Below are positions 30,277 through 52,733 of a DNA stretch of 64,000 bases, one piece after another. Under the pieces are notes generated by a model. The model was not told where the DNA came from and did not search any database. It worked only from the letters and a program-made list of their open reading frames with translations. The number at the start of each line of letters is the position of its first letter. Position 1 is the first letter of the stretch. The DNA lies in the NCBI GenBank assembly GCA_041397625.1, contig JAWKWH010000005.1:86271-150270 (forward strand), written 5' to 3'. The translations under genes were made by a program, and so were the position numbers. Origin of the DNA: Rhizobiaceae bacterium. Lineage in GTDB: Bacteria; Pseudomonadota; Alphaproteobacteria; Rhizobiales; Rhizobiaceae.

Positions 30277-30282
30277 AATCGT

Positions 30283-32674: not shown

Positions 32675-32714
32675 TGTCGTCTCCGTTGGAAAGTGTTTCG
32701 GTCAGGGGTGCCGA

Positions 32715-33861: not shown

Positions 33862-33874
33862 CGCTTCTACTCAA
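33862..33874 (-). promoter_or_regulatory. Conserved leader block TTGAGTAGAAGCG (minus strand)
   Basis: Identical to 26603-26615. Lies 25 nt downstream of operator O2 in the direction of transcription. Confidence 0.35.
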
Positions 33875-33899
33875 GCTGATTAAAGCGCAATCCTCCCGG

Positions 33900-33911
33900 A
33901 TTGTCAACAAT
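33900..33911 (-). promoter_or_regulatory. Operator O2 ATTGTTGACAAT (read on minus strand)
   Basis: Perfect 12-bp palindrome within GGATTGTCAACAATCC. 258 nt upstream of the paralog B start, just downstream of the cobW-like gene terminator. Confidence 0.7.
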
Positions 33912-33959
33912 CCTGTCCGGCCGTTTGCCAAGAAAACGATGGCATCGCGGTCGCGCGAC

Positions 33960-33996
33960 AAAAAAAGAAAGCCCGTACCGTCTGTCCGGTACGGGC
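33960..33996 (-). terminator. Rho-independent terminator after the COG0523 gene
   Basis: Minus strand reads GCCCGTACCG-gacaga-CGGTACGGGC followed by TTTCTTTTTTT. Lies 42 nt after the stop at 34038. Confidence 0.85.
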
Positions 33997-34037
33997 TGCG
34001 AGGTGGCGACCTCATCCGGTCGCGGCGGGAGATGGCG

Positions 34038-35084
34038 TTATTGCTCGACAAGGCATTCGCGCAGCCGGGCCTCGATTCCCCTGCGGTCGAGGCGACGGCC
34101 GATGAACACGATCTTCGACCTGCGTTCCTCGTCCTGCCAGGGGTGGTCCGGGCGCAGGTCGACCAGCTTGTGCACGGCCTGCAAAACGTAAAACCGGTCG
34201 TCGCCTGCAACCGACAGGATGCCCTTGGTGCGGAAGATGTCCTCGCCCTTCTCGTCGAGATAGTCGTGCAGGAAAGCCTGCAGCCTGCCGAGATCGAACG
34301 GCGCCTGCATGGTGAAGCTGTGCGAGGTCACCGTCTCGTCGTGCACATGGCCGGCGTGATGCGCGTGGTCGTGATGGTCCTGGCCGTCATCGTCCATGTC
34401 GATCTGCAGGATCTCGGCGCGCTCGCGAACATAGGAGGGCTGGAAACCGTTGACGTTGAGGATGCGGCTAAGATCGACGACACCGTAGCTGGAGCGCATG
34501 ATCTCGGCAGTCTGGTTCAGGCCGCGCAGTTCCTTTTCAAGAACGTCAAGATCGCCCTCGCTGGCAAGATCGACCTTGTTGACGATAATCCGGTCGGCGG
34601 CGACGATCTGGTCCACCGCCTGGTTGTCCTTGCCGTCGAGCACCGGATCGTAGAGGTGCTGGTCGACATGCTTGGCGTCGACCAGGGTAACGATCGCGTC
34701 GAGATTGACCTCGCCTGCCACTTCCTGATCGACGAAGAAGGCGGTCGCCACCGGCGTCGGATCCGCCAGTCCGGAGGTTTCGACAATAATGTGGTCGAAC
34801 TTGTCCTTCTGCGCGATCAGCTTCCTCATCACGTCGATCAGGTCGTTGCGCACGTCGACGAAGCAGCAGATGCAGCCATTCTGCATCTGGAAGATCTCCT
34901 CGTCGGAGGCGAGCACCAGATCGCTGTCGACGTCGATCTCGCCGACCTCGTTCTCGATCACCGCGATGCGGTAACCATGGCGTTCGGTAAGGATGTGGTT
35001 GAGTAGCGTCGTCTTGCCCGAACCGAGGAACCCGGTCAGGATCGTGATCGGAATCTTGCCGTCCTTGATCTCATGTATCTGCAT
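34038..35084 (-). CDS. COG0523 (CobW/ZigA-like) metallochaperone GTPase
   Basis: Walker A GFLGSGKTTLL, CxCC motif GCICCF, His-rich stretch DHHDHAHHAGHVHDE. Start ATG overlaps the stop of the Mo-subunit gene (TGATG). Confidence 0.88.
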   Translation of the reverse strand: MQIHEIKDGKIPITILTGFLGSGKTTLLNHILTERHGYRIAVIENEVGEIDVDSDLVLASDEEIFQMQNGCICCFVDVRNDLIDVMRKLIAQKDKFDHIIVETSGLADPTPVATAFFVDQEVAGEVNLDAIVTLVDAKHVDQHLYDPVLDGKDNQAVDQIVAADRIIVNKVDLASEGDLDVLEKELRGLNQTAEIMRSSYGVVDLSRILNVNGFQPSYVRERAEILQIDMDDDGQDHHDHAHHAGHVHDETVTSHSFTMQAPFDLGRLQAFLHDYLDEKGEDIFRTKGILSVAGDDRFYVLQAVHKLVDLRPDHPWQDEERRSKIVFIGRRLDRRGIEARLRECLVEQ

Positions 35085-37387
35085 CAGACCGCCTCCTTCT
35101 GCCTCAGCCCCTCGAGGATGTCCTCGGGCGTTATCGGATAATGGTGGAACCGGACGCCGATGGCGTCGTGGATGGCGTTGGCGATGGCCGGCCCGATGGC
35201 GATGATCGGATCCTCGCCGACGCCCTTGGCGCCCCAGGGACCGCCGGGATCGGGCGCCGCCTCGATAATGACCGTCCTTATGTCGGGCATGTCCATCGAC
35301 AGCGGCATCTTGTAGTCCACCAGGCCGGCATTGAGGGGGCGGCCGGTCTTCATGTCGACGATGTAGTCCTCGGTCAGCGTGTGGCCGATGCCCTGCTGGA
35401 TGCCACCCTCGATCTGTCCCTCGGCGGCAATCGGATGGATCACCCGGCCGACATCGTGCACGGGAACGACCCTGACGACTTCGACGATGCCCGTACCCGT
35501 ATCGACGGCGACCTCGACGAAATGGGCGGCAAACGAATAGGACTTGGTCGGCTCATAAGTGCCGTTGCCGATGATGTTGGCGGCCGGAACGCCACGCGAC
35601 GGCCCCATCGCCTCTGCGACCGTCATCGACCGGCCCGCGTCGCCCACGACGAAGATAACCCCCTCGTCGATGTCCAGCCTCTCGGCAGCGGCCTGCATCT
35701 TCTCGGCGGCGCGGTCGAGCACTTGCGCCCGCGCCTTTTCCGCCGCGAGCTTTGTCGCGCTTCCGACCAGATAAGTGGTGTGGCTGGCAAATGCGCCGAT
35801 GTCCCACGGCACGACATCGGTATCGCCATGGATGACACCGACGGTCTCGAAGGGAACACCCAGCGCCTCGGCGGCGATCTGGGCCAGCGCGGTGTGCGCC
35901 CCGGTGCCGAGGCCGGCAGCGCCGGTGAGCAGGGTGACCGATCCGTCCTCATTGACCTTGATCGTGGCATTGCCCTGCTCTTTGATACCGGGATAGGCCG
36001 ACGATCCGTGCATCTCGCAGCCTATGCCATAGCCCCGCAGCACCGCCGGCTTGCCCGGAACGCTGCGATCCGAGCCACGCAGCCTCGTCCATTCGAACTC
36101 GTCGAGGCCGCGCTTGATACAGGCTTCCAGGCCATGGCCGACGACCGGATGACCGGATGGGGCGACATCGCCCTCGCGCACGGCGTTCTTCAGTTTCAGT
36201 TCGGCGGGGTCCATGCCGAGCCGCTCGGCCGCCTCGTCGAGTTGGATGTCGATCGGGAAGTAGGTCTGCACCACTCCGTAACCACGGAAGGCGCCGGAGA
36301 TCGGCGTATTGGTATAGACCGCGCGGCCGTCGATACGGACGTTCTCGCAGCGATAGAGCGAGACCGCCGAATTAGTGCCGACGATCGTGACGCCGGGGCT
36401 GTGCGATCCGTAGGCGCCCGAATCGTAGACGATGCGCATGTCACGCGCGGTAATCGTGCCGTCTTTCCTGAAGCCCTGCTTGAGCGAGAGCTTGAAGGGA
36501 TGGCGTGAGCGCCCGGCAACGAAGGTTTCATGTCGGGTGAATTCCATGCGCACCGGCCGCCTCGTCTCCTTCGCCAGAAGCGCGCACAGGAATTCGTGCT
36601 GGAAGCAGTCCTGCTTGGCGCCAAAGCCGCCGCCCATGTGATCGACGAGCACGCGCACCTTGGTAAGCGGCAGCCCGAGCACCTCGGCAAGGATGCCGCG
36701 CACCATGAAACTGGTCTGGGTCGAGGTCCAGAAGGTCAGCTTGTTGGAGCCGTCCCAATCGGCCATGCAGACATTGGGCTCCATGTAGGCCGGGATCGGA
36801 CGGCCGCCTGAAAACTCTCCTTCCAGGATCAGGTCCGCCTCGGCAAATCCGCGCGCTAGATCGCCGCGCTCGACAATAACGGGATCGAGCACGAGATTGC
36901 CGCCCGGGCCGACATTATGGATCAGCGGCGCGCCCGGCTTCTGCGCTTCCTCAGGATCGAAGACGGCGGGCAGCGCCTCGTATTCGACCTCGATCAGGTC
37001 GAGCGCCTCGTCGGCGATTTCCTCGCTGATCGCGGCAATGGCGGCCACGCCCTCGCCCCAGAAGCGCACCCGGTCGTCGAGGATGTACTGGTCTTTGGTG
37101 CACGACGCCGAGCGTGGATGCGGCGAACCGTAGTGCAGCACGCGCGGCACGTCCTTGTGGGTCAGCACCGCCTTGACGCCCGGATGGGCGAGCGCCCTGG
37201 AAACGTCGATACGCTTGATTTTCGCGTGCGCGATCTCGGCGCGCTTGATCTTGCCGAACAACAGTCCGGGAAGCGTAATGTCGCTTGTGTAAAGCCCTTC
37301 GCCGGTGACCTTTTCCAGCACGTCGTCGCGCTTGACGCTCTTGCCGACGGTACGGAATTGGCGGTCGAATTTCACATGTTCGGTCAT
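35084..37387 (-). CDS. Molybdenum hydroxylase large (molybdopterin-binding) subunit, xanthine dehydrogenase/aldehyde oxidase family, substrate unknown
   Basis: ORF trimmed to ATG 37387 (ATGA overlap with the small subunit). HMGGGFGAKQD, ISGAFRGYG and AKGVGEDPII (active-site Glu) motifs. Confidence 0.88.
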   Translation of the reverse strand: MTEHVKFDRQFRTVGKSVKRDDVLEKVTGEGLYTSDITLPGLLFGKIKRAEIAHAKIKRIDVSRALAHPGVKAVLTHKDVPRVLHYGSPHPRSASCTKDQYILDDRVRFWGEGVAAIAAISEEIADEALDLIEVEYEALPAVFDPEEAQKPGAPLIHNVGPGGNLVLDPVIVERGDLARGFAEADLILEGEFSGGRPIPAYMEPNVCMADWDGSNKLTFWTSTQTSFMVRGILAEVLGLPLTKVRVLVDHMGGGFGAKQDCFQHEFLCALLAKETRRPVRMEFTRHETFVAGRSRHPFKLSLKQGFRKDGTITARDMRIVYDSGAYGSHSPGVTIVGTNSAVSLYRCENVRIDGRAVYTNTPISGAFRGYGVVQTYFPIDIQLDEAAERLGMDPAELKLKNAVREGDVAPSGHPVVGHGLEACIKRGLDEFEWTRLRGSDRSVPGKPAVLRGYGIGCEMHGSSAYPGIKEQGNATIKVNEDGSVTLLTGAAGLGTGAHTALAQIAAEALGVPFETVGVIHGDTDVVPWDIGAFASHTTYLVGSATKLAAEKARAQVLDRAAEKMQAAAERLDIDEGVIFVVGDAGRSMTVAEAMGPSRGVPAANIIGNGTYEPTKSYSFAAHFVEVAVDTGTGIVEVVRVVPVHDVGRVIHPIAAEGQIEGGIQQGIGHTLTEDYIVDMKTGRPLNAGLVDYKMPLSMDMPDIRTVIIEAAPDPGGPWGAKGVGEDPIIAIGPAIANAIHDAIGVRFHHYPITPEDILEGLRQKEAV

Positions 37388-37866
37388 GACCTTGTCGCCT
37401 CGATGTCGCTGGCAGCGCCTTTGACGGCGTCGAAAATCTTGGTGTAGCCGGTGCACCGGCAGATATTGCCCGACAGGCCGAAGCGGATTTCCGCGTCCGA
37501 CGGGTTCGGATTCTCGCGCAGCAACTGGTTGGCCATCATCAGTATCCCGGGCGTGCAAAAGCCGCACTGGGACGCACCGTGCTTCATGAAATTGTCCTGC
37601 AGCGGATGCAGGTCGTCGACCGACGCCTGAAGGCCCTCGACGGTTTCGACGCTCGCACCATCGGCTTCCACCGCCAGCATCAGGCAGGCATTGATCGGCC
37701 TGCCGTCGACGATGACGGTGCAGGCGCCGCAGTCGCCGACGTCGCAGCCCTTCTTGGTGCCGGTCAGGCCGACTTCCTCGCGCAGCGTGTCGAGCAGGGA
37801 ACGGTAGTCCTCGACGACGACTTCGCGCTCTTCACTGTTGATCGTCATATTGATGATGCGTTTCAT
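37384..37866 (-). CDS. Molybdenum hydroxylase small subunit (two 2Fe-2S clusters)
   Basis: ORF trimmed to ATG 37866 (ATGA overlap with the FAD subunit; alternative ATG at 37848). CDVGDCGACTV, CGFCTPG and CRCTGY motifs. Confidence 0.9.
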   Translation of the reverse strand: MKRIINMTINSEEREVVVEDYRSLLDTLREEVGLTGTKKGCDVGDCGACTVIVDGRPINACLMLAVEADGASVETVEGLQASVDDLHPLQDNFMKHGASQCGFCTPGILMMANQLLRENPNPSDAEIRFGLSGNICRCTGYTKIFDAVKGAASDIEATRS

Positions 37867-38726
37867 GCTGTCTGCTCCAGGGCTTGCAGGATGGCGCGTT
37901 CGGTGAGGACGCCAACCATGCGGCGCCGGTAGTCGGCGGAACTGCGTACATTGCTGATCGGCGTGCATTCCTGCATCGCCTTTGCCGCGGCGGCACCGAT
38001 CGCGTCGGGGCTCAGGTCGGACCCCTTGAGTAGTGCCTCGGCTTCCGAGGCGCGCAGCACGGTCGGGCCGACAGCGCCAAGCGCGACACGGATGTCGCTG
38101 CAACGGCCGCCGTCACGGTCAAGACTGACCGCTACGCCGACCGTTGCCAGCTCCATCGCCTTGCGCCTTCCGTGCTTTATATAGGCGCGGGCGCTGTCGG
38201 GCCTCGGAGCGGGCACCGACAGGCCGACCGCGATCTCTCCCGGCGACAGCACCGTGCGGCCGGGTCCTGTGAAAAATTCGGCCAGCGGCACCGTGCGGTT
38301 GCCGTCCGGATTGTAAATCTCGATTGCCGCTTCATCGGCGATCAGCGGTGGAATGGTGTCGGCCGACGGCGAAGCACGGCAGATATTGCCGATCACCGTG
38401 GCGCGGTTGCGCACCTGGATCGAGCCGAGTTCGCTCAGCGCCGCGGCGAAGTTCGGATAATGCCGGCGCACCTCCGCGGAAGTCTCCAACTCGCGCGCAG
38501 TGGTTAGCGCGCCGAATCTCAGCCCATCACTGTCATCGTAGGAGAAACCGTCGAGATTAGGGATCTTCTTGATATTGATGACGTGGCGGACGGTACGCAG
38601 CCGTTCGCGAATCTCGACCAGCAGATCGGTACCGCCGGCAAAGAAAAACGCCTCGTCGCCCAGTTCCTTCTTGAGGGCCGACGCCGCGGCCAGCGTCGTC
38701 GGTTCATGATATGCAAAGCGCCTCAT
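37863..38726 (-). CDS. Molybdenum hydroxylase medium (FAD-binding, CoxM-like) subunit
   Basis: FAD_binding_5 / CO-dehydrogenase flavoprotein domains (FFAGGTDLL, RNRATVIGNI). Confidence 0.88.
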   Translation of the reverse strand: MRRFAYHEPTTLAAASALKKELGDEAFFFAGGTDLLVEIRERLRTVRHVINIKKIPNLDGFSYDDSDGLRFGALTTARELETSAEVRRHYPNFAAALSELGSIQVRNRATVIGNICRASPSADTIPPLIADEAAIEIYNPDGNRTVPLAEFFTGPGRTVLSPGEIAVGLSVPAPRPDSARAYIKHGRRKAMELATVGVAVSLDRDGGRCSDIRVALGAVGPTVLRASEAEALLKGSDLSPDAIGAAAAKAMQECTPISNVRSSADYRRRMVGVLTERAILQALEQTA

Positions 38727-38766
38727 GCAAAGCCTTCCTTTCTTCCGCCCGCAAGCGGGCTCCCGC

Positions 38767-39558
38767 CTAGTCGGGGGATTGAAGACCGCGCCTTGCCTTT
38801 TGAGCGCTGCTACCGGTTCTCCGATTTCTTGACGATTTCTCTTTTCCCGCAGGACGCGCGACTTCCTCCGCCTTGCGCGCGCTTTCCTGCATCATGGTCG
38901 TTTCGAGTTCGCACAGCAGACCGGAATTCAGCCGTGCCGCCCTTTCGCCGTCGCCACGTTCCAGCGCCTCGATCGTTGCGAAATGGGTCGGCGTGCCGTG
39001 GAACTTCGACGTGCCGCCGACCCGCTCGGGCGAGAGCAACGGCTGGCAGTTCATCAGGTCTTCAAGGAAGCGGGTCAGCGGTGCGTTGCCGGCAAGCCGC
39101 GACATCGCCAGGTGGAAACTGCGCGACAGGCGATAGGCATCTTCGACGCGCCCCTTTTCATAGGCGCGATCCTCGGCTTCGACGATATCGCGCAGTTCTC
39201 CAAGCCCGGCCTCGTCGATCGTGGCGGCGAGCTTGCGCAACGCCATCTCCTCGACCGCCCGGCGCGCCTCGAACATTTGGCCGGCCTCGTCGGCATCAGG
39301 CTGGATAATCAGCGCGCCGCGGTTCTGGCTGAGTTCCACAAGCCCCATGCCGGCGAGCCGCACAAGCGCGTTGCGGATAGCCATGCGGCCGGCGCCGGTC
39401 GCTTCCGACAACTCGCGTTCGATAAGCCTGTCGCCGGCCTTCAGGCGAAACGCGTTGACCGCATCGACCACGCTATTGATCACACGCCCCTCGGCCTCAC
39501 GTCCGCTGCGACGTGTCCCGTTGGGCAGATCAAGAGCTGGAAACACGGAAGGCTTCAT
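38767..39558 (-). CDS. GntR-family regulator with FCD (FadR/VanR-type) effector domain
   Basis: wHTH (ERELSEATGAGRMAIRNALVRL) plus an all-helical FCD domain. ATG 39558 (GTG 39561 possible). 40 nt upstream of the FAD-subunit gene. Confidence 0.85.
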   Translation of the reverse strand: MKPSVFPALDLPNGTRRSGREAEGRVINSVVDAVNAFRLKAGDRLIERELSEATGAGRMAIRNALVRLAGMGLVELSQNRGALIIQPDADEAGQMFEARRAVEEMALRKLAATIDEAGLGELRDIVEAEDRAYEKGRVEDAYRLSRSFHLAMSRLAGNAPLTRFLEDLMNCQPLLSPERVGGTSKFHGTPTHFATIEALERGDGERAARLNSGLLCELETTMMQESARKAEEVARPAGKEKSSRNRRTGSSAQKARRGLQSPD

Positions 39559-39569
39559 CACGGCCTCGG

Positions 39570-39808: not shown

Positions 39809-40726
39809 CTAGTTCGCAGCGAGGTTCGGCGCGTCCCTTCCCTTCGTGGCGCCGGGCCACGCAAGCAGCTCTTTGTAGTGGGCCATTCTGTCCAGCAGAA
39901 TGGCGCGATACTCTTCCAGGTCGATGGTGCGGTCGCTGATGCGCGTCATGCCGCGCGATACCGGCACCAGAAGATCGCCGGCATGCGTGCCCTTCAATGC
40001 ATGAATGGTCGCGACTTCACCGCCCTGGGCGCCCATCCCCGGCGCCAGAATGATCGTGTTCGGCAATTGTCGACGGAGCCTCCGCGCTTCGCCCGCCGCA
40101 GTCGCGCCGACGACGGCGCCTATGGCACTGAGTCCACCTCCGCCATTGGCCGATTGTGCGATCATGTAGATCAGCTCGGCCAACCGGTCAGATACAGAGT
40201 GATTGCCCGCCATCTGGTCTTGTAGCCACGCCGCACCCGGATTGGACGTGCGGCAAAGAACCAGAATCCCCTTGCCGAACTGCCGGGCGGCATCGACGAA
40301 TGGCTCCAGCGTGTCGGGTCCCATCAGGGGGTTGACCGTCATGCAATCGACTTCGAAATCGCCACTACCGCCGGCCGACGCCGGTACCAGATAGGCGCGC
40401 GCATAGGCAGCCGACGTCGCGTCGATGTCACCGCGCTTGGCGTCGAGAATTACACCGATGCCGGCAGAGCGTGCCTGTCTTATCCCCTGGGAAAGGGCAG
40501 TCAGACCGGCCAGTCCGCAGGCTTCGAAATAGGCCGCCTGAAACTTCACGAACCCCACACGACCTTCGATCAGCGGAAGCAGAAAGTCGACAAACCGCGC
40601 GATCCACTGAGGATCGTCGCCAAATGCATGCGGCAGGTCAGGGCGATTGGGATCGATGCCGATGGTCAGCGGGCCGAATTCGCTGGCGTTTTGAGCGACC
40701 AGGTCCTGCCAGGGCATTCGGTTCAT
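39809..40726 (-). CDS. pyrF: Orotidine 5'-phosphate decarboxylase, long type 2 form
   Basis: 305 aa. DAKRGDI active-site motif and type-2 architecture. Confidence 0.85.
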   Translation of the reverse strand: MNRMPWQDLVAQNASEFGPLTIGIDPNRPDLPHAFGDDPQWIARFVDFLLPLIEGRVGFVKFQAAYFEACGLAGLTALSQGIRQARSAGIGVILDAKRGDIDATSAAYARAYLVPASAGGSGDFEVDCMTVNPLMGPDTLEPFVDAARQFGKGILVLCRTSNPGAAWLQDQMAGNHSVSDRLAELIYMIAQSANGGGGLSAIGAVVGATAAGEARRLRRQLPNTIILAPGMGAQGGEVATIHALKGTHAGDLLVPVSRGMTRISDRTIDLEEYRAILLDRMAHYKELLAWPGATKGRDAPNLAAN

Positions 40727-40746: not shown

Positions 40747-41082
40747 TCAGTTCGATCCGTCGGTTCTGTGCGTATCCGCCAGCCGGCGCGCAGCCTCGTT
40801 CATGGCGTCCAGCTTCGCCTCCGCCGAGCCGCCGGCAAAGGCATTGCCCAGAAGCGTGACCATGCCGGTTATGTGATTGAACTCTTCGGCCGCTTCCTCG
40901 ACCGTCAGCGGTTGGTCGTCATAGGATTCGACGAAACGCTGGGCCGCATAGGAAATGAGAAGCAGGGCCGCCGAATTGTCGGGTTCCTTGGCAATTCGCG
41001 CACGCGCGGCGCGCGCGCAGGCATCATAGGCGCGGACGCCGCCTCCCGCGTCACTAATGGCCTTTACCAGCGAATCAAACAT
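40747..41082 (-). CDS. Hypothetical acidic helical protein (111 aa) between pyrE and pyrF
   Basis: ORF 40747..41091, ATG at 41082. Gaps of 18-20 nt to both neighbours. No recognisable motif. Confidence 0.55.
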   Translation of the reverse strand: MFDSLVKAISDAGGGVRAYDACARAARARIAKEPDNSAALLLISYAAQRFVESYDDQPLTVEEAAEEFNHITGMVTLLGNAFAGGSAEAKLDAMNEAARRLADTHRTDGSN

Positions 41083-41100
41083 AACGCGCACTCCTTGGAA

Positions 41101-41796
41101 TCATCGTGCCAACTCGGATATTCCGCCGTGATTTGCGGACCATGCGACCGGGCCGTTCAGAAACAGCTCCACCTCGGCGATCGTGGCGGTCGGAAAACGG
41201 TTCTCGTCCTTGCAAACCTTCAAAATGTCCCACCAGGTCGCGAGGTAATGCAGCCGCATGCCGGCCGCGGCGAGCTTCTCCGGCGTGTCCGGAAAGATGT
41301 CGTAATAGAAGACGGCGAACGTGTCGGTCACGCGCGCGCCGGTGCGCGCGATCGCCTCGGCAAATTTGAGTTTGCTGCCGCCGTCGGTCGTCAGATCCTC
41401 GACCAGCAGGACGCGCGCGCCTTCCGCCAGGGCGCCCTCGATCTGCGCATCGCGGCCGAACCCCTTCGGCTTCTTGCGAACGTATTGCATGGGCAACCCG
41501 AGCCGGTCCGCCAGCCATGCGGCAAACGGAATACCCGCGGTCTCGCCGCCGGCGACGGCATCGAACTGCTCGAAACCGACATTGCGGAAGATGATCGAGG
41601 CGCCGAAGTCCATCAACGCGGAGCGGATGCGCGGATAGGAAATGAGTTTGCGGCAATCGATATAGACAGGACTTGCGAGACCGGAGGTGAATGTGAACGG
41701 CTGATCGGCCCGGAAATGGACGGCGTTTATCTCCAACAGCATTTTCGCCACCGTCTCGGAAATCACTGCGCGATCTGGAAAAGTGTTTGAAAACAT
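41101..41796 (-). CDS. pyrE: Orotate phosphoribosyltransferase
   Basis: ORF trimmed to ATG 41796 (AGGAAG upstream). Alphaproteobacterial-type PyrE ([18 protein letters not shown] motif [13 protein letters not shown]). Confidence 0.9.
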
Positions 41797-41858
41797 GGCT
41801 GCTTCCTGCTGGTTGACCGTCACCCTCTCGCTAACAACATTGCCGCGGACTAGCCAGA

Positions 41859-42899
41859 CTACTCCCCGATATTCCAGTGGATAGGAAACCCCGGGTCGAA
41901 CACCGTGACCGGCCCCTCCGCCGTCTCGATCTTCTCGGGGAACGAAATCGGCGCATCGAGCCGGGTGAGCGTGACGCGGGCTTCATTCGCCGGCAGGCGG
42001 TAGAAGGCCGGTCCGTTCAGCGAGGCGAAGGCTTCCAGTCGGTCGAGCGCGCCTTCCTCCTCAAAAACGTGGGCCAGCAACGGCATGGTGTTGATCGCCG
42101 TGAAAATGCCCGCACATCCGCAGGCACATTCCTTCAGAGGGTCAAGATGCGGAGCCGAGTCGGTGCCGAGGAAGAAGCGCGTGTCGTCCGAAGTCGCTGC
42201 CTCGCGCAGGGCGAGGCGATGGTGCTCGCGCTTGGCAACCGGCAGGCAGTAATAGTGCGGCCGGATACCGCCGACCAGGATGGCATTGCGGTTGATGATG
42301 AGATGATGCGTGGTGATGGTGGCCGCCTGGTTGTGGTCCAGCGAGCGGACATAATCGACGCCATTCTTCGTGGTCACATGTTCCATGACAACGCGCATTT
42401 CGGGCAGCCGGCGCCGCAGCGGATCGAGTACGCGTTCGATGAACACGGCCTCGCGGTCGAATATGTCGATGTCCGGATCGGTCACTTCGCCGTGCACGCA
42501 GAGCGGCATGCCGATTTCCGCCATCTTCTCCAGCACCGGCATGGCCTTCTCGATGTCGCGCACGCCGCTCTGGGAGTTTGTGGTGGCGCCGGCCGGATAG
42601 TGCTTGACGGCGGTGACCAAACCGTCGCGGAAGCCGGCCTCGACGTCGGCCGGCTCCGTGGCCTCGGTGAGATAGAGGGTCATCAGCGGCGTGAAGTCAT
42701 GGCCTGCCGGCAGCGCCTCGAGGATGCGTTTCCGGTAGGCCGCCGCATCGCTCGTCGTTGCCACAGGCGGCACCAGGTTGGGCATGACGATGGCGCGGGC
42801 GAAATCGGCCGAACTGTATGGCAGCACCGCCTTCAACATCGCTCCGTCGCGCAGATGCAGGTGCCAGTCGTCCGGTCGTCTGATCGTCAGTGTGGTCAT
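41859..42899 (-). CDS. pyrC: Dihydroorotase (E. coli-type class II)
   Basis: Near end-to-end resemblance to E. coli PyrC ([34 protein letters not shown]). Confidence 0.92.
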
Positions 42900-44179
42900 T
42901 ATCCAACCTTCAGGAATTGGTGGACGATATCCGTCGCGGCGATGAAATCGGAAAAGTCCATCGCCTCCAGGGGATTGTGCGAACCGTTCCGGTTGCGCAC
43001 GAACACCATCGCCGAGGGCACGCCCGCGGTAGCGAAGACCGCCGCGTCATGACCGCCGCCGCTGGGCATTACAAACGGTTCCTGCCCGACTTCTTTCATC
43101 GCGACTTCCAGTTGGCGGACCAGTGCGGCATCGCACAGCGCCGGCGCAGTATAGAGTTCTTCGTCAAATTTGAACTCGACCTTCCGGTCCCGCTCCACTT
43201 GCCGCATTTCGGCTTCCAGCAGCGCGCGCATTTCGTCAAGCGTTTCGGCGCTCTGGCTGCGGATATCGAGGCTGAACGAGATCTCGTCTGGAATGCGCGA
43301 CATGGCGTGCTTGTCGGGGTCTGTGCCGACGATGCCGCTGGTCAGGACCAGGTCGTCGCCCTTGTTCAGGATTGTCGACCAGCTCTCGTCCAGCCGCACG
43401 AGCAGATCGGCCATCGCCAGAACCGGGTCGCGCCGGAACGCCCGCGGCACGGCGCCCGAATGCCCTGCCTCGCCGATGCAATGAATGTCGCGATGCCGTA
43501 TGTTGCCGCGAATGCCGGAAACGATGGCCGCCGGAATGTTCTTTCCGATCAGCAGCGGCCCCTGCTCGATATGCAATTCCAGATAGGCCTCGATCTGCCC
43601 GAGGTCGATCAGCGGGCGTCCGTGGCGCACCTCGTCCATCGGGATGCCGACACCGGCCATATGCTCGCCGAGCGTGCGCCCGTCGCCCCTGTGCTTTGCC
43701 GCCAGTTCCTCGGGCGACAGGCTGCCGGTCAGCGCTTTGGAGCCCGTGTAGCAGGGTCCGAACCAGGCGCTCTCCTCGCCGCGCATTGCCAGCACATGGA
43801 AGGGCCGGACGGTCGCCGCGCCGTCTCGTTTGGCCCTGGCCAGGCAGACGAGGCCCGCCACCACACCGGCAAGTCCGTCGAAATTACCCCCGAAGGGAAC
43901 GCTGTCAACATGCGAACCGACGACTGTGAAGGTCTTCGAGTCCCGATGCTCGGGAAGTGAGAAGTTGGCGTTGCAACCGGCATCATGCCAGACATCGATG
44001 CCCTGAGAACGGGCAAATCCCTCGAGCAGCTTCAGCGTCGCCGTCTCGATCTCGGAGAACGCCGGACGACTGACGCCCTCGACATCCGCCGTCTGCGAGC
44101 CGATCCCGTCGAACAACAGCCGCGCGATGCCGAGATCGTCGATGTTGCCGTCGGCAACGATTTGCGTCAGCGCGCTCAC
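42899..44179 (-). CDS. M20-family N-carbamoyl-L-amino-acid amidohydrolase (AmaB/HyuC/AllC family); candidate N-carbamoyl-L-aspartate hydrolase
   Basis: [26 protein letters not shown] and GEAGHSG motifs. GTG start overlaps the pyrD stop (GTGA). Stop overlaps the pyrC start (TAATG). Confidence 0.85.
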
Positions 44180-45120
44180 GGTGCGGCTTCCATGAAAACG
44201 ACGCTCGGCCGCTGCTCACCGTCGACAACGGTCCCGATCAGATCGCGAACCGAGGCGATCCCCTCGCCTTCCAGATGGCGCCGGAGATCGGAGATGATGG
44301 TTACCATGGCTTTCGGGTCGACGAAGGTGGCGGTGCCTACCTGCACGGCCGACGCACCGGCGATGAGGAACTCCAGAACATCGTCGCTGCCGGAGATGCC
44401 GCCGCAGCCGATCACCGGGATGCGCGTTGCCTTCGCGCACTGGTAGGCCATACGAAGCGCTATCGGCTTGAGCGAAGGGCCGGAAAGCCCGCCCATCAGA
44501 TTGCCGAGCTTGGGACGCCTGGTCGTGATGTCGATCGCCATCGCAAGCAGGGTGTTGGCCACGACGAGGGCATCGGCGCCTCCCTCTTCCGCCGCCCTGG
44601 CCACCTCCGGCGTCTCCCCCGTATTGGGCGTAAGCTTCGCCCACAACGGCAGGTGAGTCGCATTCCTGAGCCGGCGCATCACCTCATAGGTCGAGGATGG
44701 CCGGATGGCGAACGCCTTGCCGTCCTCCTCGATGTTGGGGCACGACACATTGACCTCGATGGCCGCAACGCCGTCGACCGTAACCTCGGCGCAAAGCGCC
44801 GCGAACTCGTCGACCGTGTTGCCGGAAATACTGACCACGAGCGGCGTCCGATAGGAACGGTAGAGCGGCACCGTCTTGTCGAGAAAGCTCTTCACGCCCT
44901 TGCTCGGAATACCGATCGAGTTGAGCATGGAGCCGCCGACTTCGCACACGCGGGGCGTCGGATTGCCGCTGCGATAGTCCCGCGTGATCGTCTTGGTCAC
45001 GTGGGCACCCAGGCACTCGATGTCGAACACCTCGGCCAATTCTTCGGAAAACGTGCCGGAGGCCGGCATGATCGGATTCTCAAGGCGCAACCCGGCGATA
45101 TCGACGGACAGGTCTACCAC
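44176..45120 (-). CDS. pyrD: Dihydroorotate dehydrogenase class 1B catalytic subunit
   Basis: ORF 44176..45783 trimmed to GTG 45120 (overlaps the pyrK stop, GTGGTAG). Class-1 catalytic-Cys motif NVSCPN; IPVIGCGGI. Confidence 0.88.
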   Translation of the reverse strand: MVDLSVDIAGLRLENPIMPASGTFSEELAEVFDIECLGAHVTKTITRDYRSGNPTPRVCEVGGSMLNSIGIPSKGVKSFLDKTVPLYRSYRTPLVVSISGNTVDEFAALCAEVTVDGVAAIEVNVSCPNIEEDGKAFAIRPSSTYEVMRRLRNATHLPLWAKLTPNTGETPEVARAAEEGGADALVVANTLLAMAIDITTRRPKLGNLMGGLSGPSLKPIALRMAYQCAKATRIPVIGCGGISGSDDVLEFLIAGASAVQVGTATFVDPKAMVTIISDLRRHLEGEGIASVRDLIGTVVDGEQRPSVVFMEAAP

Positions 45121-45962
45121 GGCATCGCCTCCTGAACATCGAAGACGGGACCTTCGCGGCAGACCCGCAACTGAACGCGCTCGCCCGCCCGCATGAACGG
45201 CCGAACGCAGCAGTGACACATGCCGAGCCCGCATGCCATTTGCTGCTCGAGAGCGATCTGTCCCGGAATTCCGTGGCGCCTGCCGAGCGTCTGGAGCAAG
45301 GTGAGCATGCGGTTCGATCCGCAGGTATAGAAGGCGTCGACGCCCGGCGCGGCAACGAGGCCTTCGATCACCGTTTCCAGGTGCTGCATGCCGGAGGTGC
45401 GCTCCGAATCGGTGACGGTTACGACCTCGGCGCCCATCTCGCGGATATAGTCGATGGACATGAGCAGGTCCGGGGTCCGCGCGCTGCAGATCGCGGTGAG
45501 CCGTTTTCCGCTGTTGCGTGCTTCGAGCGCAAGAGGCGCCAAGGTAGCCAGACCCACGCCGCGCGCGACCAGAATCAGGTGCTGCCAGTCTTCCTCGATC
45601 CGAAACCCGATGCCGAGCGGACCGAGCACATTGAGCCGGTCGCCCGGAGCGAGCTGAAACAGCGCCCGCGTACCGGTCCCGGTCACCTTGTAGAGGAACT
45701 GAAGTTCGCCGCTTTCGGGAAGGAAAGAGTAGATGCTCATCGGCCGTCGCAGATACGGCTTGTCGGCACCATTGGAAGGACACAGCAAGTGGAAGAACTG
45801 CCCCGCGTGGCAGCGATCGAGGAGTTCCGCCGATGCCGCAAGCGTCAGTTGCACGTATTCGCTGTTGACCGGCTTGTTGGACAGGACGGCGAGGTCGCCC
45901 TCAAACACCGTGTGTTCGGATGCGTTCGGGCCGGCAAGCGGTGGGGATGTCATGACGCCCAT
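45114..45962 (-). CDS. pyrK: Dihydroorotate dehydrogenase class 1B electron-transfer subunit (FAD, 2Fe-2S)
   Basis: Ferredoxin-reductase-type fold with C-terminal MACGLGMCHCCV...VCREGPVF cluster motif. ATG 45962 overlaps the dctM stop (TGATG). Confidence 0.88.
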   Translation of the reverse strand: MGVMTSPPLAGPNASEHTVFEGDLAVLSNKPVNSEYVQLTLAASAELLDRCHAGQFFHLLCPSNGADKPYLRRPMSIYSFLPESGELQFLYKVTGTGTRALFQLAPGDRLNVLGPLGIGFRIEEDWQHLILVARGVGLATLAPLALEARNSGKRLTAICSARTPDLLMSIDYIREMGAEVVTVTDSERTSGMQHLETVIEGLVAAPGVDAFYTCGSNRMLTLLQTLGRRHGIPGQIALEQQMACGLGMCHCCVRPFMRAGERVQLRVCREGPVFDVQEAMPW

Positions 45963-47248
45963 CACCCAAACGCCAGGTTGGGAAGGAAGGTGGATATGGG
46001 CGGCACATAGGTAATGATTGCCAGCGCCACGAGGTTGGCCGCAACGAACGGCCAGATGCCCGAGATGATGGTCATGACCGGCTTGCCGAGGGTCGAGGCC
46101 GCCACGAAAAGGTCGAGCCCGAATGGCGGAGTGATCATTCCGACGGAGATATTGAGGGTCACGATCATGCCGAAATGAATGGGATCGATGCCCATTGCCG
46201 TCGCCACCGGATAGAGTGGCGGCACGAGGATGAGCAGGGCCGAATTCGGATCGATGAACATGCCGGCGATCAGGAAGGCGACGTTGACCACCAGCAGGAA
46301 CATCACCGGGCCGGCGTCGGCGGCCGAAAGAAATGCAAGTATGTGGTTGGGCACCTGCGCAAGCGTGATGAAGTAGGACAAGAGACCGCCGAGTGCGAGC
46401 AGCACGAAAATGATGGCCGTCGAGATGGCGGCCCGTTCAGTGATCCCGAACAACCCTCTCAAGGTAAGGGTCCTGAAAACCACGGCCTCGACGAAAATGG
46501 CATAGACCACGCTGGCGGCGGCGGCCTCGGTCGTCGTGAAGAAGCCGCTATAGATGCCCCCAAGGATGATCAGCGGCATACCCAGCGCCCAGGCCGCGTG
46601 GCGGATGGAGGCGAAACGCTCGCGCCAGCTTGTTTTCGCGCCGCCGCTGACGCCGCTGCGCCGCGCCTCCACCGCAACCAGAACGGCAAAGACGACGCCG
46701 AGAACCAGACCCACGGCAATGCCGGCCACGAACAGCCGCGCGACCGACGCGCCGGTCATCCAGCCATAGATGATCAGCGTTATCGACGGCGGAATGAGCA
46801 AAGCCGTCTCGGCGCTTGATGCGACGAGGCCGAGCGAAAACCTGTCGCGAAAGCCGGCCGAGGTCATTTCGGGGTAGACCATGCGGCCCATGGCGGCGAC
46901 GGTGGCCGGCGCCGAGCCCGAAACCGAGCCGAAAGCCATCGAGCCGCCGATGACCGTGTAGCCGATTCCGCCCCTGCGGTGGCCGACAAGGGACTGGACC
47001 AGGTCGGTCAGCCGCCGGGCAATCTGGCCGTCGCCCATCAGCTCCGCCGCAAGGATGAAGAAGGGAATCGCCAGAAGCGTGGAATGATTGATCCCGCCGA
47101 CGACTTTCTGGACGATGACCGGATCGGGCAGTGAACCGTAGAAGAACTGCTTGACCATGATGGCCGGAACGCCGAGCACGAGAAACATCTCGAACCCGCT
47201 GACCAGCAGCACTATGGCGATAGCTATGACAACCGCAAACAGGATCAT
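45962..47248 (-). CDS. dctM: TRAP transporter large permease
   Basis: ORF trimmed to ATG 47248 (ATGA overlap with dctQ). 428-aa DctM-family polytopic membrane protein. Confidence 0.9.
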   Translation of the reverse strand: MILFAVVIAIAIVLLVSGFEMFLVLGVPAIMVKQFFYGSLPDPVIVQKVVGGINHSTLLAIPFFILAAELMGDGQIARRLTDLVQSLVGHRRGGIGYTVIGGSMAFGSVSGSAPATVAAMGRMVYPEMTSAGFRDRFSLGLVASSAETALLIPPSITLIIYGWMTGASVARLFVAGIAVGLVLGVVFAVLVAVEARRSGVSGGAKTSWRERFASIRHAAWALGMPLIILGGIYSGFFTTTEAAAASVVYAIFVEAVVFRTLTLRGLFGITERAAISTAIIFVLLALGGLLSYFITLAQVPNHILAFLSAADAGPVMFLLVVNVAFLIAGMFIDPNSALLILVPPLYPVATAMGIDPIHFGMIVTLNISVGMITPPFGLDLFVAASTLGKPVMTIISGIWPFVAANLVALAIITYVPPISTFLPNLAFG

Positions 47249-47751
47249 GCCCCGCCCTCCCGGTTCTCCGAGAAACGATCGATGACGCCTGCGAAACTGA
47301 GTAGATAGCGCAGCGCAAGCAACGCAAAGCCGATGGTGGGAGCGACATAGATCCAGCCCATCGGAAAGCCGAGGGTCGGGCTGCGCTGGCCGGTGCCGAA
47401 AACGAAGACGGTCATCTCGCAGCCAATCCAAACCAGGTAGAGCGCCAGGACGAAGCCGACCGTGTCGATGATCTTGCGCAGCGGCAACCGCGTGGCCTCG
47501 GCGATGGCGTTGCGCCAGGTATCGACGGCGACATGGCGGCCGCGCTCGAGCGCCAGCCCCAGCGCCAGGAACACCAGATAGACGTTCATCAGGCGTACCG
47601 CTTCCTCGATCCATGCGAGGTCCGAGGCAAGGCTGCTACCGGAAGCGCGCACGACGACATTGATGAAGTACAGGCCGACCATGGTCAGGAAGATGAGAAC
47701 AAGCGAGAGGCGCTCGGCCGTGCGCAGTAATGAAAGCGCCTTCCGCATCAT
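47245..47751 (-). CDS. dctQ: TRAP transporter small permease
   Basis: Four-TM DctQ-family protein. Confidence 0.88.
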   Translation of the reverse strand: MMRKALSLLRTAERLSLVLIFLTMVGLYFINVVVRASGSSLASDLAWIEEAVRLMNVYLVFLALGLALERGRHVAVDTWRNAIAEATRLPLRKIIDTVGFVLALYLVWIGCEMTVFVFGTGQRSPTLGFPMGWIYVAPTIGFALLALRYLLSFAGVIDRFSENREGGA

Positions 47752-47832: not shown

Positions 47833-48843
47833 CTATTCGGTGATCGCTGCGTATTCCTTCTCGTAGAGCTCGATCAACTTCGCACCCTCTTCGCCCGCCC
47901 GGTCGAGATAGGCTTGGCGGGTCGCCGGATACATGGTCTTGCGGAACGCCGCCTTTTCCTCGGCCGACAGTTCACGCACATCCAGGCCCGCCGCCTTTAT
48001 CTCCTCGAGCGAGGAGGCGACGGCGGCGCGCTTGTGAGCGATCAGCTCCGGAATGACCTCGGCAAATGCGTCGGTGATGACCGTCTGGTATTCCGGCGGC
48101 AGACTATCCCAGAATGCGGGATTGAACAGGATCACGTCTTCCATCGCGCCATGGCTGGAGACGACGAGGTATTTCTGAACTTCGTAGAACTTCATCGCCC
48201 TGATGGTGTCGAGCGGGTTCTCCTGGGCATCGACGACGCCGGTCTGCAGGGACGTGTAGAGTTCGCCGAACGGCAGCGCAATGGCCGAGGCGCCGAGCGA
48301 ATTGTACTGCTCGATCAGGATGTTGGAATCCATTACCCGGAACTTCTGGCCGGCAAAGGATTCGATATCGGTAAGTGGCTTGTTGGAAGTGAAACTCTTC
48401 TTTCCGTTCGGCCACAGCATCAGGCATTTCACGCCACGCGTGGCGAAGGAATCGCACAGAGCCTTGCCGAAGGCGCCGGTGCGCAGTTCCTGCGCTTCCG
48501 CGTCGTCGTCGGGAAGCAGGAACGGGATGTCGAGAATGGAGATCGCCGGATTGAAACCGCCCAGGAAGGCTGCGGGAGCCACGGTGGCTTCCAGCGTGCC
48601 GAGCTGAACGCCCTCTGTCATCTCGCGCTGCTGGCCCAACTGGCCCTGCGGGAATATCTGAAATTCGACGGCGCCGTTGGTCCGCTCGGCAACCAGCTTG
48701 GCCACTTTTTCCAGATGCACGTGGCGCGACTGCTGGGTCGATTCGAGATGGCCAATCTTGGCGACGAAATCCGCGGCCAATGCGCCCGATGCGCCGAATG
48801 CGAGAATGGCCGACAGGGTCAGGCTGCGAAGCAATTGTCTCAC
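47833..48843 (-). CDS. dctP: TRAP transporter periplasmic solute receptor (DctP family)
   Basis: ORF to 48852. GTG 48843 preferred because AAGGGAG sits directly on the first GTG. Signal peptide ending ALA-ADF. Carboxylate-binding Arg context GQKFRVMDS. Confidence 0.88.
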   Translation of the reverse strand: MRQLLRSLTLSAILAFGASGALAADFVAKIGHLESTQQSRHVHLEKVAKLVAERTNGAVEFQIFPQGQLGQQREMTEGVQLGTLEATVAPAAFLGGFNPAISILDIPFLLPDDDAEAQELRTGAFGKALCDSFATRGVKCLMLWPNGKKSFTSNKPLTDIESFAGQKFRVMDSNILIEQYNSLGASAIALPFGELYTSLQTGVVDAQENPLDTIRAMKFYEVQKYLVVSSHGAMEDVILFNPAFWDSLPPEYQTVITDAFAEVIPELIAHKRAAVASSLEEIKAAGLDVRELSAEEKAAFRKTMYPATRQAYLDRAGEEGAKLIELYEKEYAAITE

Positions 48844-48905
48844 GGGTTCCACCTCCCTTATGTTTCAGACTGCTGCGAAGCCAAGCCTATGGAACGGCAT
48901 ACCGG

Positions 48906-48917
48906 CTGTCAACAAAT
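48906..48917. promoter_or_regulatory. Degenerate operator-like site CTGTCAACAAAT
   Basis: 9-bp core TGTCAACAA shared with O1-O4. Lies in the dctP/XRE divergent promoter. A TTGACAAT half-site also occurs at 48989-48996. Confidence 0.3.
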
Positions 48918-48919
48918 AT

Positions 48920-48933
48920 TCTCAAAATTGAGA
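48920..48933. promoter_or_regulatory. 6-2-6 inverted repeat TCTCAA-AA-TTGAGA in an AT-rich divergent promoter
   Basis: Perfect arms. Located between dctP and the XRE regulator gene. Candidate operator. Confidence 0.35.
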
Positions 48934-49046
48934 CGTTTATATTTTTCGTCTATTTATTGATCTGTATGTGGATTGGTGATCCGGCCATTTGACAATCGGT
49001 GAAGACGGACCCGATAACATGGCTTCCTGACACCAAGGATAGGTCG

Positions 49047-49955
49047 ATGAGCGTATCGCAGGGGGACTCCATTCGGTTCGGGGATATCGGAGCCCGTTTG
49101 CGGGCCCATCGCCTCGGCAAGGAGTTCACACCCGACGAACTGGCAAGGAAGCTGGGAATTTCCCGCGCCGCGCTCTACAGGGCCGAAAAGGGCGAGATCC
49201 GCAAGATCGAAATGCTCACCAGCATCGCCGACGAGCTCGGGGTATCCCTTGCCAATCTCATGGGCGTCGGGGTCGAGTATGTCAGCACCGCGATCGGCTT
49301 CTTTGAAAGGATGCGGCAGCTCGAGGAGCAATGCCAGCAGATCATCGGCCTGTTCAGCCCGGTATCCTATCTCCTCACATCGGACAGCTACGACGCTGTC
49401 CTAAGGGAGGTGCTGCGCGAGTCGATTCCCGACGGCGTCGAACCGGACGGTACGTCGGTCAAAGCCGTCGACGCGCTGCTGGAGATTCTGCGCGCCCGCA
49501 AGAGAACGTTCGATCTGAAGCGGCCGCTGATCGTCAGCCTTATCGCGTCAGCCGATCTCGAACGGTTCCTGCTGCACGGGCTGATCGGTCGCCACGACCT
49601 GCCCGCCGGGATCATCGACGACCGGCGGATAAAGGCGCGCAGCGAGGCCGAATACATACTCTCCATGCTGCGCAGCCAGCCGATCGGCATCCAGATCGGC
49701 ATCGTTCGCGAACCGGTGCCGGCGACCAGCTTTCAGATCTTTCGGCAGGCGGACCGGTCAGTCCTGGCGATCAGCCCGTTCCGCCTGGGCGAACAGCCCA
49801 ATATCCGGTTGGGCGTGGCGCTGATAACATCGGCGCCAGAAGCGATGGATCTGCACGAGAGCATCGCTGAACGGCTATGGGGCGAGGCGCTGAAAGGCCC
49901 CGAAGCCGCCGCCTATCTGGAGGCCATGATCGACAAATATGCAATCAGCGCCTGA
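49047..49955 (+). CDS. XRE-family HTH regulator with a ~230-aa uncharacterised C-terminal domain
   Basis: ORF 48999..49955, ATG 49047 with AAGGATAGG upstream. HTH_3 motif (FTPDELARKLGISRAALYRAEKGE). Confidence 0.8.
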   Translation: MSVSQGDSIRFGDIGARLRAHRLGKEFTPDELARKLGISRAALYRAEKGEIRKIEMLTSIADELGVSLANLMGVGVEYVSTAIGFFERMRQLEEQCQQIIGLFSPVSYLLTSDSYDAVLREVLRESIPDGVEPDGTSVKAVDALLEILRARKRTFDLKRPLIVSLIASADLERFLLHGLIGRHDLPAGIIDDRRIKARSEAEYILSMLRSQPIGIQIGIVREPVPATSFQIFRQADRSVLAISPFRLGEQPNIRLGVALITSAPEAMDLHESIAERLWGEALKGPEAAAYLEAMIDKYAISA

Positions 49956-50815: not shown

Positions 50816-50974
50816 TCAGCAGGCCCGCCTGGCAGGCGCGGCGTGCGCAAGCGCCACACATTCGGGTTGCGAACGAAGCGCCGCCGTCAGCAAATGCGCA
50901 TTGGCAGCCATTAACAAGATGGCGGCCAAGACGGCGCCGGCGACAGCCAGTCGTCCCTGCGCGCGCGGCGTCAT
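50816..50974 (-). CDS. 52-aa single-TM protein translationally coupled to ccoP
   Basis: ATG 50974 overlaps the ccoP stop (ATGA). One hydrophobic helix (LAVAGAVLAAILLMAANAHLL) and two C-terminal Cys. Stop is 12 nt before the DUF2189 start. Confidence 0.5.
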   Translation of the reverse strand: MTPRAQGRLAVAGAVLAAILLMAANAHLLTAALRSQPECVALAHAAPARRAC

Positions 50975-51846: not shown

Positions 51847-52004
51847 TCCACCTCCTCCGCATCTCGAAGGATCGAGCGGGCGGCGCTCTCGTGCGCCTCC
51901 CGGCGCGAGGGGCTGTAAGCGCGGATGACGACAATGACGAAGAACCCGACAAGCCAGATCAGCCCGACTGTCTTGGAAAGATAGACCAGTATTTCGTGCG
52001 TCAT
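51843..52004 (-). CDS. ccoQ: cbb3-type cytochrome c oxidase subunit Q
   Basis: 53-aa ORF not in the track (MTHEILVYLSKTVGLIWLVGFFVIVVIRAYSPSRR...). ATGA overlaps with both ccoO and ccoP. Confidence 0.8.
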   Translation of the reverse strand: MTHEILVYLSKTVGLIWLVGFFVIVVIRAYSPSRREAHESAARSILRDAEEVE

Positions 52005-52729: not shown

Positions 52730-52733
52730 CGCA

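Follow-up and report, generated by a model that had tools for sequence, protein, structure and literature searches.

A probable ureidosuccinase gene in an operon of TRAP transporter and pyrimidine genes from a Rhizobiaceae bacterium

A gene for an amidohydrolase of the M20 family lies between pyrD and pyrC in a stretch of 64,000 nucleotides from a Rhizobiaceae bacterium (assembly GCA_041397625.1, contig JAWKWH010000005.1, positions 86,271 to 150,270), the whole of which is called the window here. A preliminary description of this DNA, made from the sequence alone, had proposed N-carbamoyl-L-aspartate as the substrate of the enzyme. The gene, its neighbors and its relatives in other genomes were analyzed computationally, and the results indicate that the product (M20 in what follows) is probably an N-carbamoyl-L-aspartate amidohydrolase (ureidosuccinase, EC 3.5.1.7) acting in orotate catabolism. 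The gene order is XRE regulator, then DctP-DctQ-DctM-PyrK-PyrD-M20-PyrC-PyrE-small open reading frame (ORF)-PyrF, with all genes on the minus strand except that of the regulator. The transporter is of the tripartite ATP-independent periplasmic (TRAP) type, and PyrK and PyrD are the subunits of a dihydroorotate dehydrogenase (DHODH). Scores are given in bits against the cutoff of the model.

48999-49955, plus strand: divergent XRE-family helix-turn-helix (HTH) regulator (Pfam HTH_31/HTH_3)
47833-48852, minus strand: TRAP solute-binding protein DctP, proposed to bind orotate (match to PDB 4NN3)
47245-47751, minus strand: TRAP small permease DctQ (by position and homology to DctQ of related loci)
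45962-47248, minus strand: TRAP large permease DctM (Pfam DctM, 363 bits; ATGA overlap with the dctQ stop)
45114-45965, minus strand: PyrK-like FAD/[2Fe-2S] electron-transfer subunit of class 1B DHODH (1EP3_B, E value 1.8e-24; GTGA overlap with the dctM stop)
44176-45120, minus strand: PyrD, catalytic subunit of class 1B (NAD-linked) DHODH (NF005574, 354 bits versus 269; start overlaps the pyrK stop)
42899-44179, minus strand: M20 hydantoinase/carbamoylase-family amidohydrolase, 426 amino acids, GTG start, proposed ureidosuccinase
41859-42899, minus strand: PyrC, homodimeric-type dihydroorotase (TIGR00856 equivalog, 436 bits versus 293)
41101-41823, minus strand: PyrE, orotate phosphoribosyltransferase (NF001729 equivalog, 389 bits versus 245; 35 nucleotides after pyrC)
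40747-41091, minus strand: small ORF of about 111 amino acids, conserved with the module
39809-40726, minus strand: PyrF, type 2 orotidine monophosphate decarboxylase (TIGR02127 equivalog, 208 bits versus 111)

Every junction from dctQ to pyrC is an overlap, and the two that flank the M20 gene were read directly from the sequence. At the 5' side, pyrD ends in CCG TGA and shares 4 nucleotides (GTGA) with the GTG start of the M20 gene; at the 3' side, the M20 gene ends in GGA TAA and shares 1 nucleotide with the ATG of pyrC (TAATG). The M20 gene is translationally coupled to both neighbors, and its placement, overlapping pyrD and pyrC, is as first described. Its GC content at third codon positions was 0.79, in line with the real genes of the window. 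A scan for promoters and terminators gave nothing above chance inside the operon. The AT-rich intergenic region of 146 bp between dctP and the XRE gene (48853-48998) holds an inverted repeat, AGACG-N11-CGTCT as read on the minus strand, which is a possible operator.

The upstream neighbor had been named simply pyrD. That name holds and can now be refined, because the product is a class 1B catalytic subunit, with PyrK and the TRAP transporter encoded immediately upstream. Against solved structures, PyrD matched class 1B 1EP1_A with an E value of 1.5e-70, versus merely about 1e-25 for class 1A. The structure matched by PyrK, 1EP3_B, is the PyrK subunit of the class 1B enzyme (DHODB) of Lactococcus lactis; the best NCBIfam matches of PyrK were DHODH electron-transfer subunit models, under their equivalog cutoffs (125 versus 270). 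The equivalog score of PyrD, together with the adjacent PyrK partner, places the pair in class 1B. This is the type of the orotate-reducing enzyme of Clostridium oroticum, the prototype of the class.

An orotate-binding TRAP protein was reportedly described by Vetting et al. in 2015. DctP of the window matched PDB 4NN3 over its full length, with 64.6% identity and an E value of 4.8e-135, and the next PDB match was at 1.4e-49. The structure of 4NN3, a TRAP binding protein, was solved with bound orotic acid (PMC11668362), and orotic acid is listed as one of the new TRAP ligands from the screen of the Enzyme Function Initiative (PMC5812351). A Maridesulfovibrio protein that is 94% identical to 4NN3 heads a DctPQM-M20-PyrC-PyrE gene set, with PyrD, PyrK and an XRE regulator encoded just upstream.

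The family of the M20 protein was examined with domain models. The score with TIGR01879 (hydantoinase/carbamoylase amidase) was 257.3 bits versus a cutoff of 204, and those with the Pfam models Peptidase_M20 (81 versus 24.6) and M20_dimer (26.4 versus 21) also passed, which confirms the earlier assignment to the AmaB/HyuC/AllC family. The top-scoring NCBIfam models were unnamed "Zn-dependent hydrolase" subfamilies, and every more specific model scored below its cutoff. An identical protein in NCBI, from a Rhizobiaceae metagenome-assembled genome (MAG), likewise bears the name "Zn-dependent hydrolase." The nearest solved structure was the L-N-carbamoylase 3N5F (E value of 3.6e-51); further matches were Escherichia coli AllC (about 1e-37), N-carbamoyl-beta-alanine amidohydrolase, ureidoglycolate hydrolase and yeast beta-alanine synthase.

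The active site was compared in an alignment of 81 M20 orthologs with 3N5F and with 1Z2L (E. coli AllC). The translation of the window gene contains the motifs G88-S-H90-V-D92-S-V, G97-G-N-F-D101-G, M132-R-G-E135-E136-S-A-W139 and G236-E-A-G-H240-S-G. The di-metal ligands H90, D101, E136, H203 (in ELHIEQG) and H377 (in SGGGHDA) and the catalytic E135 were invariant in the 81 orthologs and aligned with their counterparts in 3N5F and 1Z2L. So were H240, which from published structures we take to be the dimerization-domain His that reaches into the active site of the partner subunit, and R307, presumably the Arg that binds the substrate carboxylate. All of the motifs quoted as metal binding in the preliminary description are thus present, but the His of GEAGHSG (H240) is not a metal ligand, judging by homology to AllC and L-carbamoylase.

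The substrate pocket differed from those of both reference enzymes. The residues of the clade (81 sequences) at nine positions, with those of the reference structures, were as follows:

Position 133: clade R; 3N5F T, AllC A
Position 134: clade G; 3N5F D, AllC E
Position 137: clade S; 3N5F G, AllC G
Position 139: clade W; 3N5F R, AllC R
Position 224: clade R; 3N5F A, AllC V
Position 226: clade N; 3N5F L, AllC Q
Position 228: clade R; 3N5F W, AllC R
Position 294: clade S or T; 3N5F N, AllC N (family Asn)
Position 295: clade R or K; 3N5F V, AllC V

Positions 133 to 228 of this set were invariant across the clade. Position 226 we take to correspond to the side-chain-recognition Leu of L-carbamoylase and to the pocket Gln of AllC. 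The family Asn of the N-V-[IV]-P motif was replaced at position 294 by Ser in 63, Thr in 15 and Ala in 3 of the sequences, and position 295 is Arg or Lys where 3N5F and 1Z2L have the Asn-Val pair at 294-295. The loss of this Asn is a departure at the level of the subfamily, with the fold retained. The pocket set was kept at 43-50% identity in the orthologs from Maridesulfovibrio, Burkholderiales, Klebsiella, Pseudomonas putida and Pandoraea. A second carboxylate would be well accommodated by the additional cationic residues, although the point is no more than suggestive. As a marker of the PyrDK-linked clade, the combination R133/S137/W139/R224/N226/R228/S-T294 was tried and dropped, since it was found across many distant representatives of 50%-identity clusters.

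Next, the conservation of the locus was examined in a genome scan with one genome per species, in which gene content was called by tblastn with the window proteins. Eighty alphaproteobacterial loci were found, in Rhizobiaceae, Phyllobacteriaceae, Stappiaceae and Rhodobacterales, at 59-81% identity. Contiguous PyrK-PyrD-M20 was present in all 80. Most loci also had the XRE regulator and the same TRAP system, most had PyrE, and about half had PyrC. TRAP genes were missing from the loci of Neorhizobium, Rhizobium and Agrobacterium; in Agrobacterium radiobacter, a divergent NMT1-type ATP-binding cassette (ABC) transporter takes their place. The best-conserved protein of the locus was PyrE, with 97% identity to that of one of these loci (L001). 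PyrF adjoins the module only in the lineage of the window, and it follows the module likewise in L001 and L018. For the small ORF, no NCBIfam or Pfam family was matched, and tblastn matches lay downstream of M20/PyrC/PyrE in 49 of the 80 loci. Homologs of 108-111 amino acids were found in modules of Nitratireductor, Klebsiella, P. putida and Variovorax, with a shared motif around AALLLI..AAQ.FV..YDDQ, at the following positions:

L086, 11101-11427: small-ORF homolog
L085, 12448-12774: small-ORF homolog
L088, 10618-10947: small-ORF homolog
L097, 10018-10344: small-ORF homolog

Outside the Alphaproteobacteria, linkage of M20 to a putative orotate transporter, class 1B DHODH and dihydroorotase, as found in the window, was kept in most of the loci sampled, the exceptions being L089 and L093 (see below). 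The XRE regulator is a conserved, orthologous component of these modules: that of the window was 40-48% identical, over its full length, to the regulators beside the modules of Maridesulfovibrio, Pandoraea, Klebsiella and P. putida. Several gene orders were found, in which the transporter may be of the major facilitator superfamily (MFS):

Burkholderiales MAG: PyrE-like; DctPQM-PyrK-PyrD-M20
Burkholderia YI23 and Pandoraea: porin-MFS-PyrK-PyrD-M20
Variovorax: MFS-PyrK-PyrD-M20-PyrC-HTH-phosphoribosyltransferase-small ORF
Roseomonas: LysR; PyrK-PyrD-M20-PyrE
P. putida plasmid: HTH; MFS-PyrK-PyrD-M20-dihydroorotase-small ORF-malic-enzyme-like
Paraburkholderia xenovorans: HTH; porin-MFS-PyrK-PyrD-M20-PyrC-AspA-PyrE

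The dihydroorotase in the pyrC slot of P. putida is a nonorthologous type of 453 amino acids (NF006688, 701 bits versus 535). The AspA of P. xenovorans is an aspartate ammonia-lyase equivalog (TIGR00839, 694 versus a cutoff of 681); linkage to AspA was noted in this species only and was absent from the window and from most loci.

In Klebsiella, 53 plasmids of K. pneumoniae, K. quasipneumoniae, K. oxytoca, K. michiganensis, K. grimontii and K. aerogenes carried a module of 6.8 kb with the order MFS-PyrK-PyrD-M20-PyrC-HTH and an identity of 99.8% or more; the Klebsiella M20 ortholog is WP_204752700.1. It adjoins lacIZY in the one plasmid examined for this (L085, K. pneumoniae NZ_CP069904.1), and 9 of the 53 plasmids were of milk or bovine mastitis origin. 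No megablast match to the module was obtained in complete E. coli genomes. Cow's milk is rich in orotic acid, and the plasmid module may be a milk-niche trait.

Taken as a pathway, the operon would work as follows. The TRAP system would import orotate, and the class 1B PyrK/PyrD flavoprotein would reduce it with NADH to (S)-dihydroorotate. PyrC would then open the ring to give N-carbamoyl-L-aspartate, and the di-metal M20 enzyme would cleave this to L-aspartate, CO2 and NH3 in an irreversible last step. Such a decarbamoylation would pull two reversible biosynthetic reactions backwards, and the aspartate would serve as a carbon and nitrogen source. Both the NADH-driven reduction of orotate and the opening of the ring at neutral pH are thermodynamically favorable. 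PyrE, together with PyrF in the window, would divert part of the imported orotate to UMP, so that the pyrimidine supply is kept while carbamoyl-aspartate drains. The divergent XRE regulator presumably turns the operon on in response to orotate, which would avert a futile cycle with de novo synthesis.

Several observations support this reading. The sole compound between dihydroorotase and aspartate that fits a carbamoylase is N-carbamoyl-L-aspartate. The enzyme core stays constant while the transporter switches among the TRAP, ABC and MFS types, as is typical of a catabolic module devoted to a single imported substrate. The pyrC slot is held by two unrelated types of dihydroorotase, so that the dihydroorotase function itself appears to be what is selected. 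In P. xenovorans, the aspartase gene that follows pyrC points to aspartate as the end product. Klebsiella chromosomes already carry a class 2 pyrD and a pyrC for biosynthesis, so that further copies on a plasmid, accompanied by an additional amidohydrolase, make no sense for that purpose. The substrate first proposed for M20 thus gained support, as far as sequence comparison can give it, from the DctP match to 4NN3, the PyrK-PyrD-M20 synteny, the dihydroorotase slot, AspA and the Klebsiella plasmids.

Other observations weigh against it. The presence of PyrE and PyrF in the operon means that the locus might mainly serve salvage, and without tight regulation, de novo synthesis of pyrimidines would be short-circuited by an active ureidosuccinase. 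The pocket signature reaches representatives of 50%-identity clusters at about 31-34% identity, beyond the PyrDK-linked clade; it spans a larger subfamily, so that on its own it is insufficient to assign carbamoyl-aspartate specificity. In addition, the M20 homologs of L089 and L093, which are 81% identical to each other and each about 60% identical to the Maridesulfovibrio enzyme, carry the full signature without PyrDK. In L089 (7001-10089), the neighbors are a peptide-type ABC transporter and a NadB/fumarate-reductase-like flavoprotein, which scored below cutoff with all models and could not be assigned to L-aspartate oxidase rather than fumarate reductase. In L093 (1-7245), they are an unrelated TRAP system, two genes of the Asp/Glu-racemase family and a hydantoinase-like amidohydrolase. 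In these two loci, carbamoyl-aspartate could be supplied from different precursors, for instance 5-carboxymethylhydantoin, or the specificity could equally have drifted. 5-Carboxymethylhydantoin is another metabolite of C. oroticum.

Three other functions were weighed against ureidosuccinase. The first is a broad-specificity L-N-carbamoylase or beta-ureidopropionase of hydantoin degradation or of reductive uracil/thymine degradation, for which the pyr neighbors would say nothing about the substrate. It has in its favor that the closest solved relative is the L-N-carbamoylase 3N5F, that the beta-ureidopropionases 8C46 and 1R3N were matched too, that the L093 homolog adjoins hydantoinase-like and racemase-family genes, and that some source names read "beta-ureidopropionase / N-carbamoyl-L-amino-acid hydrolase." We nevertheless consider it unlikely. 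The enzyme linked to M20 for ring opening is, by its equivalog score, a dihydroorotase and not a dihydropyrimidinase, and PyrD passes the DHODH equivalog cutoff but scored 140 bits versus 335 with the PreA model. DctP is closely homologous to an orotate-bound structure, the position of the side-chain-recognition Leu is an invariant Asn between two invariant Arg residues, and AspA is linked in P. xenovorans.

A second, quite improbable function for the locus is salvage of orotate or dihydroorotate and pyrimidine biosynthesis, with M20 as an accessory enzyme that trims excess carbamoyl-aspartate or acts on an unrelated carbamoylated or acylated metabolite. By equivalog score, PyrC, PyrE and PyrF are genuine biosynthetic enzymes, the conservation of PyrE tops that of the locus, and orotate is documented as a salvage substrate, the only role in which it was treated in a 2026 review (PMC13328217). 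However, transport, PyrE and PyrF would suffice for salvage, and the invariant PyrK-PyrD-M20 core would be left unexplained. This core was found without PyrE or PyrC in Agrobacterium, Burkholderia YI23 and Pandoraea. Salvage would also leave unexplained the carriage of the module without PyrE on Klebsiella plasmids, as well as the AspA and malic-enzyme-like neighbors.

The third function would be one in purine catabolism, with M20 as an allantoate amidohydrolase (AllC) or as a ureidoglycolate amidohydrolase. In its favor are the match to AllC structures, the "allantoate amidohydrolase" subfamily models among the top NCBIfam matches (NF006771, 354 bits) and the same name on some orthologs in NCBI. 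It is nevertheless very improbable: all allantoate models scored under cutoff (181.1 versus 597.75 for the AllC equivalog TIGR03176), the clade has Ser or Thr in place of the substrate-binding Asn of AllC, and no allantoinase, ureidoglycine or ureidoglycolate gene was present in any locus examined.

The proposed ureidosuccinase can be set beside several known systems. In the 1950s, Lieberman and Kornberg reportedly described the fermentation of orotate by Clostridium (Zymobacterium) oroticum through an orotate reductase, a dihydroorotase and then a ureidosuccinase. The reaction and pathway logic proposed here are the same (class 1B reduction, ring opening and decarbamoylation to aspartate), but the clostridial enzyme is known by its activity alone, and the present hosts are mostly aerobic Proteobacteria, together with Desulfovibrionales. 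We know of no sequence attached to it, and it could belong to another protein family.

The L-carbamoylase BsLcar of Geobacillus stearothermophilus (3N5F) shares with M20 its fold and family, about 33% identity, the metal ligands, the catalytic Glu, the dimerization-domain His and the carboxylate Arg. It differs in having A/L/W in place of R224/N226/R228, N in place of S/T294, V in place of R/K295 and T in place of R133, and it is not linked to pyr genes. AllC of E. coli (1Z2L/4PXD) has the same family and catalytic machinery, and Arg228 of M20 aligns with an AllC Arg; in contrast, the Asn and Gln pocket residues of AllC are replaced in M20, which has no purine-catabolic neighbors. The beta-ureidopropionase/beta-alanine synthase of the Pyd pathway (8C46, 1R3N) belongs to the same family and likewise performs an irreversible third step after a flavin ring reductase and a cyclic amidohydrolase. 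Its substrate is N-carbamoyl-beta-alanine derived from uracil, whereas PyrDK and PyrC here are specific for dihydroorotate. ErtE of ergothioneine utilization (NF058540) is also an M20 carbamoylase downstream of a cyclic amidohydrolase and acts on an acidic substrate, N-carbamyl-L-glutamate. With a score of 241.3 bits versus a cutoff of 520 and a different pathway context, the window M20 is not an ErtE ortholog.

The genes around the operon were also inspected. The region directly downstream (26576-39561) is occupied by a distinct cluster, which has a promoter-like site of its own (39613-39586). Its genes encode a GntR regulator, a three-subunit molybdenum hydroxylase of the xanthine dehydrogenase (Xdh) family, a GTPase resembling CobW, a pair of Amidohydro_2 proteins, a decarboxylase of the UbiD family together with UbiX, and an ABC transporter of the NMT1 type. 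The cluster resembles one for the breakdown of an aromatic or N-heterocyclic carboxylate. Xdh-like subunits were also found near the module in L004, L005 and L080. Genes of the Amidohydro_2 family lie within a few kilobases of the module in L081, L091 and L094 (Maridesulfovibrio and two metagenomic loci) and at 31730-33650 of the window; the one in L094 gave a weak L-fucono-1,5-lactonase-like score, far below cutoff. This recurrence may be a coincidence. After the regulator, at 50971-54359 on the minus strand, are ccoN/ccoO/ccoP-like genes for a cbb3-type cytochrome oxidase, called from the translations only (a heme-copper subunit I-like protein and CxxCH cytochrome c motifs). These genes are unremarkable and have no relation to the orotate module.

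The fold, catalytic mechanism and pathway chemistry have been described before. The novelty appears to lie in assigning a gene to the activity and in recognizing that orotate catabolism is encoded by a module that is both conserved and mobile. The preliminary description had held that the genetic identity of the activity was poorly established, and our findings agree. In the searchable literature, with closed-access papers outside the scope, we found no paper that names ureidosuccinase or ties a gene to EC 3.5.1.7, nothing relevant on the catabolism, degradation or utilization of orotate, and nothing on Klebsiella, mastitis and orotate together. NCBIfam (June 2026) has no ureidosuccinase model, though ErtE, a recently described enzyme, has one. 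The public names of M20 orthologs are all generic or wrong, "allantoate amidohydrolase" in P. xenovorans being an example.

More tentatively, the M20 family may be the missing ureidosuccinase gene, and it may also define a hitherto undescribed regulon for orotate catabolism that is mobile between lineages by horizontal transfer and whose PyrDK and PyrC, nominally biosynthetic, work backwards. This regulon would comprise a transporter, PyrK, PyrD, M20, optional PyrC, PyrE and AspA, the XRE regulator and the 108-amino-acid protein. It would range over Alpha-, Beta- and Gammaproteobacteria and Desulfovibrionales; its fixation on lac plasmids of Klebsiella might aid growth in orotate-rich milk. 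The location of the plasmid module near lac and its origin, in part, from milk or mastitis suggest a niche trait.

If the assignment is correct, an enzyme activity of the 1950s would gain a sequence, and thousands of vague or wrong annotations would be corrected, among them "Zn-dependent hydrolase," "allantoate amidohydrolase" and copies of PyrD and PyrC labeled as pyrimidine biosynthetic. A second set of PyrDK and PyrC in Proteobacteria, with PyrDK of class 1B, would mark catabolism and not biosynthesis, which would bear on metabolic models and on how the essentiality of pyr genes is read. Orotate would then join those nutrients of the nucleobase type whose bacterial uptake and degradation are completely defined at the level of genes.

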